Source of the DNA: Candidatus Altimarinota bacterium
Lineage (GTDB): Bacteria > Patescibacteriota > Gracilibacteria > JBDHUY01
NCBI GenBank assembly: GCA_039809385.1
Contig: JBDHUY010000001.1
Location: 32,001 to 96,000 of the forward strand
DNA length: 64,000 nt
Reading direction: 5' to 3'
The position numbers were made by a program, and so were the translations under genes. Below, piece after piece: positions 1 through 5,727 of this stretch. The notes under the pieces are model-generated. The model worked only from the letters and a program-made list of their open reading frames with translations, was not told where the DNA came from and searched no databases. How positions within the stretch are numbered: position 1 is the stretch's first letter; the number at the start of each line of letters is the position of its first letter.

Positions 1-95
1 ATCGCCTCCGGATCGGCTTGCTGTATCAGCGCGGAGATGCGGGACAGTGTCGCTGCGCGCCAGTCGGACGGAATGGTTGTTGTAGCTTTTTTCAT
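1..95 (-). CDS. DUF1801/YdhG-like protein, N-terminal part (runs off window edge)
   Basis: ATG at 95 reads MKKATTTIPSDWRAATLSRISALIQQADPEA, matching the DWR..TL..I..LI..ADP start of YdhG/DUF1801 proteins. Not in the ORF track. Confidence 0.7.
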   Translation of the reverse strand, partial: MKKATTTIPSDWRAATLSRISALIQQADPEA

Positions 96-100
96 AGTTT

Positions 101-418
101 CTATGATTTCGATTTCTTGTTTCGTTTATCCAGTATTCCTCGCACCGACGGACTGATGGCTTTGTCTTTACGGTGAATACAGCCCAGCCAGCAGCACGGC
201 CGACGCATGCCTTCTTTGAGTTCCGATACAACCCGTCCGACGTGCTCGGCTCGTGTTTCCGCCTTCTTGGGGTACTCCACCCAGCAGATCCACTCGTTGC
301 GCGCGAGCGGTGTCAGGTCCTCCCATAGGACAAGAGCCGCTTTGTCAGAGGTTAATGCTTTTTGTAGATCGGCTGGCATGTTGTGCACCGTACCGGCTGA
401 AATGGATTTTGTAGTCAT
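101..418 (-). CDS. YdeI/OmpD-associated family protein
   Basis: PADLQKAL..WEDLTPLARNEWICWV..KKAETR..G.RRPCCW pattern. Confidence 0.85.
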   Translation of the reverse strand: MTTKSISAGTVHNMPADLQKALTSDKAALVLWEDLTPLARNEWICWVEYPKKAETRAEHVGRVVSELKEGMRRPCCWLGCIHRKDKAISPSVRGILDKRNKKSKS

Positions 419-564
419 ACCGTTAGTATAAAGTTTTTCTGGGTACAGTTAAACAGAAAATTTTTCTCGAAATTGTCTCAATACCTGCTTCAGAGTTATC
501 TCTGTGATCACACGTTGCTATTTGCTTTTATATGAAGGTCCCAACTCCATCGAGAAAACCAATG

Positions 565-592
565 GTTCAGGTTCTTTCAGAAATCTGAACCC
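565..592. repeat. REP-like imperfect palindrome
   Basis: GGTTCAGGTTCT-TTC-AGAAATCTGAACC, just past the stop of 618..1211. Confidence 0.5.
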
Positions 593-617
593 GCAGAGGG
601 GTCTTACTTATACGCAA

Positions 618-1211
618 TTATTTCAGCTTATGTTTTAGCCTCTCGTTCAAGCTATCTAAAATTCGAGGTCCAATATCGATTACCCATTGTGTCGCACGAT
701 GATCTAATTCCTCTCCATGTGCTGCCCTATTTAACGTTACAATCATATCAGCCAAAGCAGCCCGTTCTTGGTTTGAAATAATATCTTTTTGATGTAAGTC
801 ACGCATTAGGAAGGAGACCCCACCTTGTCTCTTTGAACTAATACCATTTTGTTCTGCAAGTGCACGGAGACTCTTTTCTATTTCAATTCGCAAAACTACT
901 AGAGCAAGGCTTGGGTCGGATTCTGCAAAATCTAGAAAAGCATATTCAGTTGTTATTTTTCTATTAGTTTCATTAATAAGACCTGCATTTTGGGCTTCCC
1001 GTTTTACACGCTCCAAATCTTGGAACTCAAGCTTTAGACCACCAGGAAATTCAAGGGATTTGAACAATGGTGCTAACCATGGCACTACTGCAACTATGAC
1101 CAAAGTTAAAGTGATTGCATCAATCTTGAGATCAGGCCAAATTATATGGACAGTAGCAATGGCTATTGCAGCAAGGGTGATTGATATTTGAACTTTTATA
1201 GCACTTTTCAT
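618..1211 (-). CDS. Membrane-anchored hypothetical protein (DUF4145/HEPN-like C-terminus)
   Basis: Two N-terminal hydrophobic helices, FKSLEFPGGLKLEF, and a C-terminal LNRAAHG (Rx4H-like) motif. AT-rich. Confidence 0.6.
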   Translation of the reverse strand: MKSAIKVQISITLAAIAIATVHIIWPDLKIDAITLTLVIVAVVPWLAPLFKSLEFPGGLKLEFQDLERVKREAQNAGLINETNRKITTEYAFLDFAESDPSLALVVLRIEIEKSLRALAEQNGISSKRQGGVSFLMRDLHQKDIISNQERAALADMIVTLNRAAHGEELDHRATQWVIDIGPRILDSLNERLKHKLK

Positions 1212-1349
1212 CTAAACCAGATTTTATTAAGGCTAAAAAATTTACGCTAACTCATTTTTCATGCGAAGTATATTCGTAATACCCCATATCTGTCCAACCG
1301 ATAGGCGGAAAACGTATCAAAAAAGTATGATTTCAAGTTTTTCTTTTTA

Positions 1350-1996
1350 CTATTCAGTCTCCGCCTCCCACGCTTGCAACGGTGGCCCACCACGGTTGTA
1401 GGCGGTTTCATCAATAACTGCTAAGTAATCAAAGTCGGTAAAACTCTGCGCCGTGAGCGGAAAGTAGGTCGGGTTCTTCTGGCTGCCCGAGCGAATGGGA
1501 AGAGTGGCAATTTCGGAAGCAGCCAATCTTTTTCCCTGATAGGTAGGAATAAATCGGATTGGCCCTGGTGTTGCCGTCAATTGAGCTTCCAGCGTTCCGG
1601 CTTCGGGCGTCCCGATGCCATTGTCATCCGAAGTACCGAGGGCAGTACCGATTACAGCATACCGTTTTCCCAGCATTTCATGCAGCTGCGATCCAGCCGG
1701 CCACCACGTTATCAGTTCGTGGCCCAGTTGCCATTGAGCCTTTCCTTTTTTCAGATGACTGTTGTGCGCAAAAGCAAAAACTTTTCCTCTCTCCTGCTCG
1801 CGGGACACGATGTAGAGGAGATTATCCGCCTGCAGCATATCGCGAATCCCCAGGCGCTCGGCATAGGTAGTCGTTTTAGCCATCGAAGCGTGGAAGTCGA
1901 GGAGTCCCCGCGCGACTCTCGCATATTGCAGGGCCTCCGAAAAACGATCCCGACCGGTCTGGGCGATCAGCTCGGGACGACGGATCTCCAATTCCT
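1350..1996 (-). pseudogene. Erythromycin esterase (Ere)-like gene, 3' half only
   Basis: RD.LQADNL..I...E..RGKVFAFAHNSHL and G..L...LG.RYAVIG motifs. The homology begins exactly at the edge of the 97-bp repeat, and the ORF-track start (2027) lies inside that repeat. Confidence 0.75.
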
Positions 1997-2093
1997 CCTC
2001 TGGTTCCAAGTTGCACTTGGAACCCAACTGTTATGCGCATAACCACCGTTTGTGTGCCAAAACATCGCAGTTCCAGGTACAACCTGGAACTAG
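1997..2093. repeat. REPIN-like element, copy 1
   Basis: GGTTCCAAGTTGCACTTGGAACC ... GTTATGCGCATAAC ... AGTTCCAGGTACAACCTGGAACT: two inverted REP-like hairpins around a central palindrome. Near-identical to copies 2 and 3. Confidence 0.9.
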
Positions 2094-2146
2094 TATCAAG
2101 TAGTTTTGATTTGATATTAATTCGAACGAATAAACTGAGCTCTTTC

Positions 2147-2677
2147 TCACCTTACAAGACCATGAGCGATTTGCAATACCTGATTAGCAACTTCATTGAC
2201 TGGTCTATTTGTATCGACGGGAATTGCGCCCATTGCAAGCATCTCCTCCGCATAGGTTTCCGCACGTTTGATAATTTGCTGCATAACGTTTTTGTCCTTC
2301 CCGAAACTGTTATCGGTTCGGTCCTCGATCCGTTTGGTAAAAACAGCTGGGCTGCATTGAAGTAATATAATCTTATCGAAGAGAGGAAGTACCTCTGTTT
2401 CGTTAGTAGCCATCCCAAGTACAAAACCAATCGTATCTTGTGTATTAAGTAAGCGTTTCAGATAATCAACATCACACACCCAGTCATGTGCATCCACAAA
2501 TTCCTTGGTCATTTCAGCATCTTTACCGCCGTGCTTTTCTCCGGTCTTCTGATGAACCCATGAGCAGAGTCCATCAACCTCATCGATACTAATCGCGAGG
2601 TAACCTAGTCTGGTTAGCTCGTCTGCTAGAGTCGTTTTGCCAGTGCCAGAGACACCGGTAATGTAAATTTTTATCAT
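2147..2677 (-). CDS. AAA-family P-loop nucleoside/shikimate kinase-like protein
   Basis: N-terminal ITGVSGTGKTT Walker A motif and R...RTDNSFGK lid. Confidence 0.8.
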   Translation of the reverse strand: MIKIYITGVSGTGKTTLADELTRLGYLAISIDEVDGLCSWVHQKTGEKHGGKDAEMTKEFVDAHDWVCDVDYLKRLLNTQDTIGFVLGMATNETEVLPLFDKIILLQCSPAVFTKRIEDRTDNSFGKDKNVMQQIIKRAETYAEEMLAMGAIPVDTNRPVNEVANQVLQIAHGLVR

Positions 2678-2691
2678 GGATTTTTCTCGAG

Positions 2692-2774
2692 TTATGGGAA
2701 GGGATTTCGAGCCAATTTTATTTTGGTTTCTCGTATGGCCGCTTCAAGTATACCGATGTTTATATCTTTAACCT
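2692..2774 (-). pseudogene. 3' remnant of a probable DUF1801-type gene
   Basis: Reads VKDINIGILEAAIRETKIKLARNPFP* starting at the edge of repeat copy 2. Resembles DUF1801 C-termini (DINI.ILEAAIR). Confidence 0.5.
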
Positions 2775-2869
2775 CTCCGGTTCCAAGTTGCACTTGGAAC
2801 CCAACTGTTATGTGCATAACCACCGTTTAAGTGCCAAACATCGCAGTTCCAGGTACAACCTGGAACTAG
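2775..2869. repeat. REPIN-like element, copy 2
   Basis: Same sequence as 1997-2093 with a few substitutions (centre GTTATGTGCATAAC). Confidence 0.9.
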
Positions 2870-2886
2870 CCTAAAATATCCAAAAA

Positions 2887-3630
2887 TCAATTTATGATTT
2901 CTCCTTTGTTGTTTGCTAGCCGTTCCCGCCATTTTTGGCGTTCCTCGGGCGTAATTTTGACCCAATCGGTTGCTTCGCCGACGATCTTCAACGGTGCTTG
3001 CGAGCGATACGAGCGGGTCGGGTTTCCGGGAAAGTATTTGTTCGTCACGTTTGGATCATTTTCAAAACTATCTGTCGGCTCAACGATATACACACGTTCC
3101 GGCCCATCGCCCTTTGCCAACGCAGCAGCCAGTCCCGCCCCATTCACTTGGGCGGTAAAATAAATGTGATTCATCTTGAGGTCTGACTGGTAATTAGAAC
3201 TGCCCCCGGCTGTCAACAAATCTCCGACTTCCAAATCTGCCTTTGTTCCATGATAAAAAGGGCCTTGGTCGGAAGGGGTATCCTGAAACGAAGTGGCTAA
3301 GGAAGAATATCTTTTCGCTTTATCGGGATCACCCAGTTCTGCATAGCAGGTGGAGATGTCTGAATAAAGAGGAGGGAAAGCGCTTTGTACCGTGGAGTCA
3401 TTTATGTTTAATCCAAGCTGGAGAGTCGTCTCGAGCCATTGCAATCGGTCGGAAACATCGTTTTGAGATCGGGCGACATGATAGGCCGTAATGAATTTTT
3501 CAAAGTCGTAGGTCGCTTCATGCCAGGCTTGAAGAAACACCTTGCCCGCTTCTGCGGGTTTCCCTTGTTTTTCAATGGCTATGCCCTGAAGACAGAGTTG
3601 AACGATATGGTTGTTGGGGCTGAATTCCAT
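2887..3630 (-). CDS. arr: Rifampin ADP-ribosyltransferase with N-terminal TPR-like helical domain
   Basis: GPFYHGTKADL..GDLL, MNHIYFT and EPT..FENDPNVT.K.FPGNPTRSYRS..PL are Arr signatures. Likely start is MEFSP (3630). Confidence 0.9.
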   Translation of the reverse strand: MEFSPNNHIVQLCLQGIAIEKQGKPAEAGKVFLQAWHEATYDFEKFITAYHVARSQNDVSDRLQWLETTLQLGLNINDSTVQSAFPPLYSDISTCYAELGDPDKAKRYSSLATSFQDTPSDQGPFYHGTKADLEVGDLLTAGGSSNYQSDLKMNHIYFTAQVNGAGLAAALAKGDGPERVYIVEPTDSFENDPNVTNKYFPGNPTRSYRSQAPLKIVGEATDWVKITPEERQKWRERLANNKGEIIN

Positions 3631-3693
3631 GTTCTCAATGGATATGGGTAACAAGTTTTTCTGTGGGGCAGATTCTTTGATGTAAGGATTTCT

Positions 3694-4167
3694 TTACACA
3701 TCAGTTCCTGCCGTATTACCAAGTTCTTCGGCCAGCCCGATGAGAATGCCTTCTGGCCCACGGATATAGCAGAGCCGATAGATATCTTGGTAATTGACGA
3801 CTTCCCCAACCAGTTGGGCACCGTGTTTGCGGAGCCGGGCGAGGGTATCGTCGATATCCTCCACGGTGAACATGACACGTAGGTAGCCCAAAGCGTTCAC
3901 CGGGGCATGGCGGTGGTCAGAGATTACAGACGGAGCAAGGAATCGGGACAATTCAAGCCGGCTATGGCCGTCCGGGGTGATCATCATGGCAATCTCGACG
4001 CGCTGGTCGCCCAGTCCGGTGACGCGACCGGCCCATTCTCCTTCTACCATGGCTCGTCCTTCAAGCTTCAGCCCAAGCTCGGTGAAAAAAGAAATAGCCT
4101 GATCGAGATCTTCTACCACGATGCCGACGTTGTCCATCCTCTTCAGATTGGCTTCTCTTGACCTCAT
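3694..4167 (-). CDS. VOC/glyoxalase/bleomycin-resistance family protein
   Basis: LKRMDNVGIVV..L..AI.FF.ELGL ... YRLCYIRGPEGILIGLAEEL. Confidence 0.9.
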   Translation of the reverse strand: MRSREANLKRMDNVGIVVEDLDQAISFFTELGLKLEGRAMVEGEWAGRVTGLGDQRVEIAMMITPDGHSRLELSRFLAPSVISDHRHAPVNALGYLRVMFTVEDIDDTLARLRKHGAQLVGEVVNYQDIYRLCYIRGPEGILIGLAEELGNTAGTDV

Positions 4168-4177
4168 ATAGTTGTGC

Positions 4178-4265
4178 TTATTTGAATAAACTTTCAGCGA
4201 AAACACCCAACGCCGTAACGATTTTCACTACAACTTGGACACTCGCCTTCTTTTCTGGCGGTATA
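4178..4265 (-). pseudogene. 3' remnant of an XRE-family HTH gene
   Basis: Reads IPPEKKASVQVVVKIVTALGVFAESLFK* from the edge of repeat copy 3, resembling HTH_3 C-termini (PS.Q...KIA.ALGVS.E.L.K). Confidence 0.5.
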
Positions 4266-4362
4266 CCTCTGGTTCCAAGTTGCACTTGGAACCCAACTGT
4301 TATACACATAATCACCGTTTACGTGCTAAAACATCGTAGTTCCAGGTACAATCTGGAACTAG
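4266..4362. repeat. REPIN-like element, copy 3
   Basis: Same element, slightly more diverged (centre GTTATACACATAAT). Confidence 0.9.
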
Positions 4363-4391
4363 CATGAGCGATATCAAATCTTGCTTTATCT

Positions 4392-4814
4392 TTATGCTGG
4401 ATTGAATTCGACCGTCCACTCGATACCGTACTTGTCCCGAAACATGGCAAAGTAGGTACCCCACGGACTTTCCGCCATGGGCATTTCAACTGTCCCGCCC
4501 GCTGAGAGTCCGTTGAAAATCCTGTCTGCTTCTTCTTTGCTTTCTGCAGTAACGGCGATCTTGGATCTATTTTCGTTCTCGCTTACTCGTCCCATGCTCT
4601 CCGGAACGTCATTTGCGATAAGTAGGTTGTTGCCGATAGGCAGCGCAATGCGCAGTATTTTATTGGCTTCATTTTCGGGTACCGGAAACTCGGCGTTTGT
4701 GATGTCTTTGAAACGGGTAATACCGGCGAATTCGCCGCCGAAAACGGATTTGTAAAACGTAAACGCTTCTTCGGCATTTCCGTTGAAGTTAATGTAAGGG
4801 TTTATGGTTGTCAT
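4392..4814 (-). CDS. VOC family protein, PhnB/YjdN type
   Basis: INPYINFNGNAEEAF.FYKSVFGGE ... LSAGGTVEMP...SPWG.YF.MF.DKYGIEW. Confidence 0.9.
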   Translation of the reverse strand: MTTINPYINFNGNAEEAFTFYKSVFGGEFAGITRFKDITNAEFPVPENEANKILRIALPIGNNLLIANDVPESMGRVSENENRSKIAVTAESKEEADRIFNGLSAGGTVEMPMAESPWGTYFAMFRDKYGIEWTVEFNPA

Positions 4815-4889
4815 AATGAGTTTGGTTAATTCATACTACGTACTCTAGCAATTCCTATGGTCGATTTCAATTTTTCGTTTTATTTCAGA

Positions 4890-5477
4890 TTATTTTGATC
4901 CAATCGGTATTGTCACAATTCTCTCAAAATAGAATTCGTCATTCGGGACGGCATACTCAATCGAACCACATTGAAATGCACCTTCCGGAACGCTCCCTTG
5001 CAACTCTTTCAGCAACTCCGTTGTGCGTTCTACCGTAATAAACTCTGCGATAGTCATGTGCGGCGCACGATCTTTTCGTGTCAACGGATTGCCCCTAAAC
5101 AGCGAAGTCGAGTGAATTACATGACGCAGGTCAAAGAACTCTTTTTCGGGAGTAATGGTATAACAAACTCCGGGATAAGGAGGGAAACTTCGCAACGGTC
5201 CATATTGTATTTCAAATGGTTGGACACGAGACAAAGCTTCTTTCAATTCTACAAGTTGTTCATCGGTCAATGGGCCGGTGAGAGGTTCGCTCAAACTAAT
5301 GTGTGCCTGGCAATAATCGGCAGATGTTGGGTCGAACTCCCGCCTCAATTCGTCTACGGGTTCGACAACCCCGTTGGGGGGAAAAATATAAAAGGCGCCG
5401 TATCGATACTCAAATTGCCACTCTTCCCAATTCTCAGTGTTCTGCTCGTATTCAATCTTGTGAAAATTATTCATCAT
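4890..5477 (-). CDS. 2H phosphoesterase / 2'-5' RNA ligase family protein
   Basis: Two Hx(S/T) motifs: AHISL and PHMTI. Confidence 0.8.
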   Translation of the reverse strand: MMNNFHKIEYEQNTENWEEWQFEYRYGAFYIFPPNGVVEPVDELRREFDPTSADYCQAHISLSEPLTGPLTDEQLVELKEALSRVQPFEIQYGPLRSFPPYPGVCYTITPEKEFFDLRHVIHSTSLFRGNPLTRKDRAPHMTIAEFITVERTTELLKELQGSVPEGAFQCGSIEYAVPNDEFYFERIVTIPIGSK

Positions 5478-5556
5478 ATGATTAGGGCAAGAGTTCTTCG
5501 ATAAAAACAGATTGAATTTTTCGACAAAGAATGGCTGGCGAGCCGGGGCGGGGTGG

Positions 5557-5583
5557 CAAGACCGGTGCCATCAGCCACTCGAC
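5557..5583 (-). pseudogene. Duplicated 5' fragment of tRNA-Ser (D-arm to anticodon loop)
   Basis: GTCGAGTGGCTGATGGCACCGGTCTTG versus tRNA GCCGAGTGGTTGATGGCACCGGTCTTG (2 mismatches in 27 nt). Confidence 0.8.
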
Positions 5584-5590
5584 TTCTTGC

Positions 5591-5678
5591 TGGCGGAGAG
5601 GACAGGATTCGAACCTGCGGTACCTTGCGGTACTCCGGTTTTCAAGACCGGTGCCATCAACCACTCGGCCACCTCTCC
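5591..5678 (-). tRNA. tRNA-Ser(TGA)
   Basis: GGAGAGG acceptor stem, CCGGT-CT-TGA-AA-ACCGG anticodon arm, long variable arm GTACC-GCAA-GGTAC, GGTTCGAATCC T-arm, encoded CCA. Confidence 0.97.
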
Positions 5679-5727
5679 CCACACAACAAACCAGTAGTTT
5701 CAAGTATAAAGCATACCAACGGTTTGT

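Follow-up and report, generated by a model that had tools for sequence, protein, structure and literature searches.

REPINs in a run of resistance-type accessory genes beside tRNA-Ser of a Patescibacteria-type genome, one of them abutting a truncated erythromycin-esterase gene

The accessory gene run and its three repeats

In the window (the whole stretch of 64,000 nucleotides that was analysed) a tRNA-Ser(tga) gene on the minus strand (5591-5678; Rfam RF00005, 63.4 bits) forms the upstream border of a run of accessory genes. All ORFs from 5477 to 101 are encoded on the minus strand, so the co-orientation stated in the first-pass annotation is correct. The first gene below the tRNA encodes a 2H phosphoesterase of the 2'-5' RNA ligase superfamily (4890-5477; PF13563). 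It is followed by a complete VOC-fold gene of the 3-dmu-9_3-mt type (4392-4814; Glyoxalase/VOC family), whose DNA is 77% identical to that of a gene of class genome G008 and 69% identical to that of a gene of G019, and by another VOC gene, VOC1, with a glyoxalase-bleomycin-resistance fold (3694-4167; PF00903, PF13669), which starts at ATG 4167 or ATG 4137. The next gene encodes an Arr (rifampin ADP-ribosyltransferase) homologue (2887-3654; NF033144 143.3 bits, cut-off 130) in which PF12120 matches residues 133-231 with 152 bits, downstream of an N-terminal extension of about 130 amino acids. A complete P-loop gene of nucleoside/nucleotide-kinase type (2147-2677) covers AAA_18 profile positions 1-127 of 128; a search of 300 class genomes (E<=1e-5) yielded no homologue. 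The run ends with the 3' half of an erythromycin-esterase (Ere) family gene (1350-1996) and, downstream of this fragment, an unknown ORF of low GC content (618-1211) and a YdeI/OmdA gene (101-418; OmdA/YdeI family). The detox/resistance character ascribed to this cargo earlier agrees with the families assigned here (OmdA/YdeI, Erythro_esteras, AAA_18, Arr-ms, two Glyoxalase/VOC and 2H phosphoesterase).

Three repeats of 96-97 nt each, designated w1 (1997-2093; nhmmer E 1.1e-32), w2 (2774-2869) and w3 (4266-4362), are found within the run, all on the plus strand. Their right (R) ends are located 53 nt past the stop codon of the kinase gene, 17 nt past that of Arr and 29 nt past that of VOC gene 4392-4814, respectively, and the genes upstream of the repeats have complete 3' ends. 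The left (L) ends adjoin the Ere fragment (w1) and two short open stretches, stub B (w2) and stub C (w3). All three repeats share one polarity: the R side faces the end of an intact gene, and the L side faces a headless gene, putative for w2 and w3. Pairwise identities among them are 91/97, 89/97 and 86/97 (89-94%) and the first 38 nt are without differences, whereas identity to any other copy in the genome is at most 83%. The earlier description of near-identical repeats in one orientation after stop codons is accurate in each of these respects.

Each repeat consists of two inverted 10-bp REP hairpins, with stems of 10 bp and loops of 3 nt. In w1 the L-REP hairpin is GGTTCCAAGT/ACTTGGAACC and the R-REP hairpin is AGTTCCAGGT/ACCTGGAACT, terminating in CTAG, with an imperfect hairpin in the middle. 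The termini are inverted relative to each other (CTGGTTCCAAGT... and ...ACCTGGAACTAG), and the sequence at each of the three L junctions is ...CCTCTGG or ...CCTCTCCGG. The repeat folds into three local hairpins; the DNA fold of w1 has an energy of -24 kcal/mol and a z score of -6.3, with 0 of 200 shuffles folding equally well, and the z scores of w2 and w3 are -6.3 and -4.8. On the coding strand the first hairpin together with a T-run looks like a terminator.

The RAYT on contig C2 and the REPIN family

The first-pass annotation reported no recombinase within the window, which is true, and predicted a RAYT flanked by the same REP. Such a gene is located on contig C2 (139991-140566). It scores 101.5 bits with NF047646 (NCBIfam; cut-off 80), its translation contains the motifs NHIHF (HIH) and YIHQNP, and its closest relatives carry the names RayT or REP-associated tyrosine transposase; with Pfam Y1_Tnp it matches only weakly (21.5 bits, cut-off 23). 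Four matches to the RAYT model were obtained in the genome, the other three below the cut-off with 48.4, 33.5 (internal stop) and 20.5 bits, and the C2 gene is the sole bona fide RAYT, a single-copy transposase. On its upstream side there are three REPINs and an L-type REP directly 5' of the gene, and on its downstream side an R-type REP overlapping the 3' end of the gene and one further copy. The final 51 nt of the RAYT gene region match the right half of the REPIN at 86%. With this hairpin anatomy and a RAYT bracketed by the same REPs, w1-w3 are true REPINs (inverted REP doublets), as had been proposed.

The REPIN family comprises 15 places in the genome at E<0.01 (nhmmer), of which about 7 are intact with both hairpins and about 8 are decayed or partial; contig C1 holds none beyond w1-w3. 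Resistance-type accessory genes adjoin 7 of the 10 places outside the RAYT locus. Four copies on contig C4, at two accessory-gene loci, are all intergenic. Those at C4:100115-100213 and C4:100791-100877 lie between genes that are both complete, and the latter is separated by 93 nt (100878-100970), with no gene remnant in the gap, from a complete gene. The REPINs at C5, C7 and C2:66057 also occupy ordinary intergenic DNA with complete genes on either side. Dispersal over ordinary intergenic sites with no truncations, which would speak against the gene-capture array proposed in the first-pass annotation, is thus the pattern of the C4, C5, C7 and C2:66057 copies, but not of w1, where Ere is truncated. 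The REP was found in only three of the GTDB representative genomes, with a single match in each.

The available sections of the descriptions of REPIN-RAYT systems (Bertels & Rainey 2011, PMC3116915) and of the E. coli REPtron (Ton-Hoang et al. 2012, PMC3333891) agree with the present family in the two inverted REP hairpins of an element of about 97 nt, in the single RAYT, which has HUH and Tyr motifs and lies between REPs of the same kind, and in the location of most copies directly downstream of genes. The present family differs in the very low number of copies, compared with hundreds in those descriptions, in its Patescibacteria-type host and in the homology of the right half of the REPIN to the RAYT gene at its 3' end. 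It also differs in that three copies adjoin a truncated gene or gene-like stubs, a type of junction that was not found in those sections. IS200/IS605 elements and their MITEs are similar in having a Y1 HUH transposase, subterminal hairpins and a short element that resembles the transposase unit minus the gene; here, the transposase is single-copy and scores as a RAYT equivalog, and no TnpB accessory gene was seen at the locus.

A resemblance to integron cassettes is seen in the co-oriented, promoterless-looking small genes of resistance type, with a structured repeat of about 100 nt behind each of them. An attC site is a single imperfect hairpin with the R''/R' core sites RYYYAAC...GTTRRRY at its ends. 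The REPIN forms three local hairpins instead of one long bulged attC hairpin, the core site pair is absent from the repeat ends on either strand, and the repeat belongs to the REP family that flanks the RAYT. No integron integrase (IntI) was found in the genome; the better of its two tyrosine recombinases is Xer-like (TIGR02249 134.2 bits, cut-off 265). That the run is an integron remnant, an attC cluster without integrase (CALIN), is accordingly regarded as extremely improbable.

The junctions at the left ends

The Ere fragment is an open frame of about 215 of about 440 codons with a TGA stop, cut off at the L end of w1. It corresponds to positions 149-358 of 358 of the Pfam profile PF05139 (Erythro_esteras), so that the domain is not full-length, and to residues 222-436 of a 439-aa protein (P0002) at 77% identity; the nearest full-length relatives have 430-445 aa. 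The homology sets in at the REPIN edge (1997), to within a few nucleotides. Across w1 lies the 3' end of the kinase gene and not the missing Ere half, so that w1 is not a simple insertion into Ere, and the N-terminal half was not found in the 95%-complete assembly. Judged from the sequence, the Ere gene has lost its front half at the L edge of w1, and this is the only solid truncation of the three. The headless Ere half, joined through the repeat to an intact gene end, had been noted correctly.

The headless genes reported at the other two repeats are less certain. Stub B (about 2692-2775, minus strand) leads away from the L end of w2 as an open frame of 27 codons with a stop, and is possibly the C-terminal remnant of a DUF1801 protein; stub C (about 4178-4267, minus strand) leads away from the L end of w3 as an open frame of 28-29 codons with a stop, and may derive from a small XRE-type HTH protein, of which it would represent the last helix plus the tail. 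No match was obtained for the stubs in Pfam even at E<=10 or in a word search of 5.8 billion proteins, and the best E in 200 class genomes was 0.36. HMMs of the DUF1801 C-terminus and of XRE were built from relatives' proteins and compared with a background of 32,296 peptides (25-60 aa) from the six-frame translation of this genome. Stub B scored 5.2 bits with the former, equalled by 23 of the 32,296 peptides (nominal p about 7e-4), and stub C 7.2 bits with the latter at profile positions 36-57, equalled by 6 of the 32,296 (nominal p about 2e-4); both counts include the stubs, and the families were picked after the fact, so that the p values overstate the support. These scores are only suggestive of stubs B and C being the ends of decapitated genes. 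No promoter-like site was found in either stub interval, which also favours gene ends. Given the similar gap of 93 nt at C4:100791-100877, the distances from REPIN to start codon, about 96-98 nt, may be those of ordinary 5' regions.

All three junctions could have arisen by coincidence, from plain intergenic REPINs, with the stubs as chance frames in normal 5' regions and an Ere gene cut by an unrelated deletion, the REPIN landing on the scar later. This is consistent with the lack of a significant match for either stub, with the similar distance of 93 nt before the intact gene on C4 and with the usual position of REPs directly downstream of genes in the available part of PMC3116915. It would require the insertion to strike the scar exactly, in a spacer of at least 53 nt, given how close to the REPIN edge the Ere homology starts. 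In addition, the stubs rank in the top 0.02-0.07% of short peptides for the families named for them, and both end shortly before the following start codon (stub B 14 nt ahead of the kinase ATG, stub C 10 nt ahead of ATG 4167). Coincidence is considered unlikely, but deserves to be kept in mind.

The source is a metagenome-type assembly in 26 contigs, and a switch of assembler path at near-identical copies might have produced false junctions, in particular with an opening 38 nt identical in all three; the Logan contigs also end inside w1 and w3. The junctions were compared with contigs from four runs (two to three studies) at a low depth of 2-6. Separate contigs link the truncated gene and the stubs to the L-REP, and the REPIN interior to the upstream gene: the Ere-to-REPIN junction was reproduced in X1 record 2, that of kinase, stub B and REPIN in X1 record 3 and that of stub C and REPIN in X1 record 4, and w3 is entered from each side by X1 records 4 and 5. 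In a second study, contig X5 record 13 covers 2715-3013 without differences, spanning the whole of w2 and both flanks. Path switching may also swap flanks, but cannot yield a headless Ere against a REPIN. An assembly artefact is therefore very improbable. The same contigs showed no joint unexplained by other REPIN copies, and neither a different order of the units nor an empty site or a circle junction, which at this depth is weak evidence.

Origin of the junctions

The first-pass annotation interpreted the run as captured fragments joined by REP-end recombination, analogous to an integron. Units consisting of a 3' stub, one or more whole genes and a REPIN would have been added to a resident REPIN at its L end, integron-like but without integrase, after excision by RAYT-type cleavage and with strand transfer. 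The shared polarity of w1-w3 fits such an array, as do their mutual similarity, as if copied locally, the many resistance-type neighbours of the family and the RAYT strand transfer documented in vitro in the part of PMC3333891 available. No unit was found elsewhere, reordered or circular in the data searched, and the REPINs of the C4 island are flanked by complete genes on both sides. The GC content shifts from gene to gene inside the proposed units, at borders without a REPIN. It is 0.531 in the YdeI/OmdA gene and 0.387 in the ORF at 618-1211, neither of which is bordered by a REPIN. The kinase is foreign to the class and its donor would be without this REP; units of a gene with its own repeat are unparsimonious because a foreign donor would not carry a lineage-specific REPIN. 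Capture as originally proposed is accordingly improbable, and neither the joining of captured fragments nor the integron analogy, with no integrase, alternative order or circles found, is supported.

A more specific version makes the L end of the REPIN an active joining site, at which RAYT strand transfer to arbitrary CT sites in single-stranded DNA would stitch foreign gene fragments behind resident REPINs and delete others, giving a primitive integrase-free array of resistance-type cassettes in a CPR bacterium. This is rated as slightly more doubtful still. One-ended rolling-circle capture by ISCR/IS91 elements is comparable in its HUH chemistry and, in this idea, in the joining of arbitrary neighbouring DNA when an element end is misrecognised. 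The transposases of ISCR/IS91 are of the Y2 type; a search with PF04986 (Y2_Tnp) gave no match in the genome, but the control search also matched 0 of 14 genomes.

The preferred account, held with modest confidence, sees w1-w3 as ordinary REPINs in an accessory island that is decaying beside tRNA-Ser. In this account DNA has been deleted up to their L ends, and the locus is not a cassette-capture device. The REPINs would be non-autonomous, MITE-like derivatives of the single RAYT (HUH/Y1) element on C2, placed just after complete genes in a run of horizontally acquired detox/resistance-type genes beside the tRNA gene. Their L end corresponds to the REP directly upstream of the RAYT gene and would act as a DNA breakpoint, at which the formerly adjoining intergenic DNA and the 5' part of the next gene were deleted. 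The loss at the L end is evident for Ere and only suggested for the two short stubs, and its attribution to a deletion is drawn from the present arrangement; the searches turned up neither an ancestral allele without the deletion nor an excision product or a strain variant. The lack of a significant database match for stubs B and C, and the 93-nt gap before the complete gene at C4:100791-100877, count against a deletion at w2 and w3.

The deletion might have arisen in two ways. The RAYT may cut at a CT beside the L-REP and rejoin further along the same strand, giving an adjacent deletion. According to the available part of PMC3333891, the E. coli TnpA-REP shows little cleavage specificity apart from a CT dinucleotide and is capable of strand transfer in vitro. 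An adjacent deletion by a RAYT is not reported in the sections of the literature available. Alternatively, two REPINs in direct orientation may have recombined with removal of the DNA between them. This is disfavoured because it would need REPINs within genes, which are rare in the systems described in the available part of PMC3116915. The available part of Tobes & Pareja (2006, PMC1525189) describes REPs as hot spots of IS insertion and rearrangement. The preference for REP ends in breakage and joining is similar here, but no IS is inserted and the junction partner is the interior of a gene.

The locus as it stands represents a known kind of system, REPIN-RAYT, with an unusual junction pattern, of which a single junction in a single genome is solid. 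The usual picture of REPINs is one of harmless extragenic passengers. At this locus the loss of half a gene coincides to the base with one REPIN end, and possibly three ends mark such losses. Should this hold more widely, RAYT/REP ends would give rise to adjacent deletions, with a bearing on how resistance-type accessory genes turn over in wastewater communities and on genome streamlining in ultrasmall Patescibacteria, in which RAYT-family genes are common: a match above the curated cut-off was found in 66 of 301 class genomes.

Gene order below the tRNA-Ser

The window covers C1:32001-96000 of an assembly that comprises 1.87 Mb in 26 contigs and is 95% complete. A tRNA-Ser(tga) gene at 5591-5678 on the minus strand is the upstream border of a run of ORFs that, down to position 101, all lie on the minus strand. 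In transcription order, these are a 2H phosphoesterase (4890-5477), a VOC gene (4392-4814), repeat w3 (4266-4362), a 28-codon open frame designated stub C, a second VOC gene (3694-4167), Arr (2887-3654), repeat w2 (2774-2869), the 27-codon open frame stub B, a P-loop kinase (2147-2677), repeat w1 (1997-2093), a fragment of an erythromycin-esterase-family gene (Ere, 1350-1996), an unassigned ORF (618-1211) and YdeI/OmdA (101-418). The family names rest on profile matches.

The Arr homologue has 255 amino acids, of which only residues 133-231 form the Arr domain; the N-terminal extension of about 130 amino acids has no family match. The ORF at 618-1211 encodes 197 amino acids with a hydrophobic N-terminus and a weak HEPN hint (E 0.027). 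With a GC content of 0.387 and a GC3 of 0.268, compared with a GC of 0.53-0.55 in the neighbouring genes, and no repeat at its borders, it looks like a separate acquisition. After 10 nt, the intact tRNA is followed at 5557-5581 by a 25-nt copy (96%) of its segment from the D-arm to the anticodon loop (5643-5667). This resembles a second tRNA-Ser in tandem of which only the 5' half is left, broken within the anticodon loop where the accessory run begins; a search of the genome for the corresponding 3' half gave nothing. The co-oriented accessory run extends at least 12 kb past the start of the window. YdeI is followed directly downstream by two DUF1801-family genes, at C1:31763-32056 (reaching into window positions 1-56) and C1:30297-30605, and a third is found at C4:81690-81956. 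TGA is a stop codon in this genome, and Ere ends at a TGA where its homologues end. In-frame TGA codons within HTH_3 or RAYT matches in some genomes of the class (e.g. G022, G034, G053, G098) suggest that the class contains TGA-recoded lineages.

The repeats and their transposase

The three repeats have pairwise identities of 91/97, 89/97 and 86/97. As single-stranded DNA, each of them forms three hairpins. The L-REP is a terminal 10-bp stem with a 3-nt loop (GGTTCCAAGT/ACTTGGAACC), the central hairpin is weaker than the end hairpins, and the R-REP is a second 10-bp stem (AGTTCCAGGT/ACCTGGAACT) followed by CTAG. Fold z-scores are -6.3, -6.3 and -4.8 for w1, w2 and w3, and none of 200 shuffles folded equally well. 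The ends repeat each other in inverted orientation, which makes the element a REP doublet. No Rfam family was found for it. The repeats are almost certainly REPINs.

The copy number in the genome is very low. A search with a profile of the three copies gave 15 places at E<0.01: three in the window, five around C2:139.6-140.8 kb, four on C4 and the remainder as weak single copies on C2, C5 and C7. No further copy was found on C1 at this threshold, including the 32 kb upstream of the window. Seven of the ten places outside the transposase locus adjoin resistance-type accessory genes, two of these loci being beside tRNA genes, an association that may reflect mere insertion tolerance of such regions.

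The five copies on C2 lie around an ORF (C2:139991-140566) with a score of 101.5 bits against the NCBIfam model NF047646 for the REP-associated tyrosine transposase, RAYT (cut-off 80). Its translation contains the HIH and YIHQNP motifs, and of the genome's four Y1-like matches no other exceeds the cut-off; a second, divergent Y1/RAYT-like ORF at C9:93384-94124 (L120) reaches 47.9 bits. The search for a RAYT flanked by the same REP, proposed in the first-pass annotation, was thus positive. The gene has an L-type REP immediately 5' of it and shares its last codons with an R-type REP, and the right half of the REPIN matches the last 51 nt of the RAYT gene region at 86%, so that on sequence comparison the REPIN looks like a RAYT element minus the gene. 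RAYT-family genes are common in the class: matches exceed the cut-off in 66 of 301 genomes and reach E<=1e-5 in 163 of them, this genome included. Several relatives have RAYT-domain matches within open frames as long as 950-1797 amino acids (e.g. G131:C3:26486-26935, G016:C1:200725-201144 and G163:C28:3381-3878), candidates for fusions of a RAYT domain to a very large protein.

In every respect that could be tested, the window element agrees with REPIN-RAYT systems. It is a known type of element in a Patescibacteria-type host, with an unusual association with gene truncation; among the matches listed, no paper names REPIN-RAYT systems in Patescibacteria. Unlike integrons, the locus has no IntI (the integron-integrase model TIGR02249 gives 134 bits against a cut-off of 265), and the repeat folds as three hairpins rather than as an attC-like single hairpin. 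The integron reading was rejected on these two grounds. A search for an IS91-type Y2 transposase had no match in this genome, nor in any of 14 control genomes.

Junctions at the two repeat ends

The genes whose stop codons come 53, 17 and 29 nt ahead of the R ends of w1, w2 and w3 are complete, with profile coverage extending to their C-termini. On the coding strand a T-run follows the R-REP hairpin, called terminator-like for w1 and w3; promoter and terminator scans as a whole were not above shuffles (10 vs 9.2 and 9 vs 7.5).

At the L end of w1, Ere homology starts at the repeat edge. The fragment corresponds to residues 222-436 of a 439-residue homologue (P0002, 77% identity) and to positions 149-358 of 358 in the Pfam profile, and no N-terminal half was found anywhere in the 95% complete assembly. 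Simple insertion of w1 into Ere is ruled out because the 3' flank of the kinase lies across the repeat. The truncation junction between Ere and w1 is solid, and here the earlier claim that a repeat joins an intact gene end to a headless gene holds.

The same annotation read stubs B and C as DUF1801 and XRE gene tails, which could not be established. Neither stub had a match in Pfam at E<=10. In a six-frame search of 200 genomes of the class the best foreign match of stub B had E 0.36 and was not at a DUF1801 C-terminus, and its 43-amino-acid read-through ORF had no match in a collection of 5.8 billion proteins. HMMs built from relatives (C-termini of 16 DUF1801 proteins and 14 small XRE proteins) were used to score the genome's complete set of 54,349 six-frame peptides, unfiltered. 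Stub B obtained 5.2 bits, with VKDINIGILEAAIRETK aligned to the conserved '..leDldLdvLkkli..' block, and stub C 7.2 bits, with ASVQVVVKIVTALGVFAESLFK aligned to the last HTH helix and tail. Among the 32,296 peptides of 25-60 amino acids, 23 and 6 respectively scored equally well or better, the stubs counted in. Because the families had been named after looking, these scores are hints, not proof. Real gene ends are favoured by the stubs stopping 14 (B) and 10 nt (C) ahead of the next start codon, and by the lack of a promoter-like site in either interval. Against this, a REPIN on C4 precedes a complete VOC gene by 93 nt, and the interval holds nothing gene-like.

The junctions recur in Logan contigs of public sequencing runs. 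An activated-sludge run, X1, reproduces four: Ere to L-REP (record 2, 1583-2026), kinase-stub B to L-REP (record 3), Arr-VOC-stub C to L-REP (record 4) and the w3 interior to VOC (record 5). Record 13 of run X5, from a different study, covers w2 and both flanks at 2715-3013 with no difference. Contigs from X5, X6 and X9 cover the region in part only, and no alternative arrangement was seen in the four runs. An assembly artefact is very unlikely, as path switching could swap flanks but cannot put a headless gene against a REPIN. Two X1 joints that go back (2093>1998 and 4307>2059) are not circle junctions; they come from a record with the letters of another REPIN copy.

Capture or deletion

The locus had been proposed to consist of captured units (3' stub, whole gene or genes and REPIN) assembled as an integron analogue without an integrase. 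The L ends are very unlikely to be capture sites, and the proposal was not borne out: movement of units was not seen. Neither another unit order, an empty site nor a relative carrying the island was found among 40 relatives, database contigs, the four runs and three tRNA-Ser loci. Against the 40 relatives, the 5.7-kb DNA matched only in the tRNA, one VOC gene and YdeI, and there was no synteny around the tRNA-Ser in the three relatives examined. The exact REP pattern occurs in three GTDB contigs and two metagenome contigs, each with a single distant copy. No kinase homologue was found in 300 genomes of the class, and those in plasmids have less than 30% identity (13 records). With the kinase foreign to the class and the REP lineage-specific, units of a gene plus its own REPIN need extra steps. 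GC also shifts gene by gene inside the proposed units at borders without a REPIN (Ere 0.547, the unassigned ORF 0.387, YdeI 0.531).

REPINs at ordinary intergenic sites had been named as evidence against capture, and this pattern was found in part. Elsewhere in the genome the element does occupy such sites, which speaks against a dedicated capture array. Among them is a second accessory island at C4:99025-102043 (L008/L011), with the order ArsR-AHSA1-REPIN-VOC-REPIN-VOC-ANT(2'')-like and complete genes on both sides of its REPINs (profile coverage 3-120 of 121 and 3-113 of 116). In the window, Ere is truncated at the edge of w1.

On balance, the L ends are somewhat better read as deletion breakpoints. 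The uniform polarity, in which R-side genes are intact and L-side genes headless (solid for Ere, hints for stubs B and C), fits end-specific DNA loss beside the L-REP. The L junctions of w1-w3 all read CCTCTGG or CCTCTCCGG. In the available part of the source, E. coli TnpA-REP is described as cleaving with little specificity beyond CT and as carrying out strand transfer in vitro (PMC3333891). Cleavage by RAYT beside the L-REP followed by strand transfer would give an adjacent deletion; alternatively, recombination between two direct REPINs would yield the same product. The available parts of the literature examined contained no report of adjacent deletions made by RAYT.

In a further accessory-gene locus, at C4:44868-46594 (L007), a tRNA-Met(cat) is followed by one intact and one decayed REPIN and then by an APH-family kinase, the ATG of which overlaps the decayed copy.
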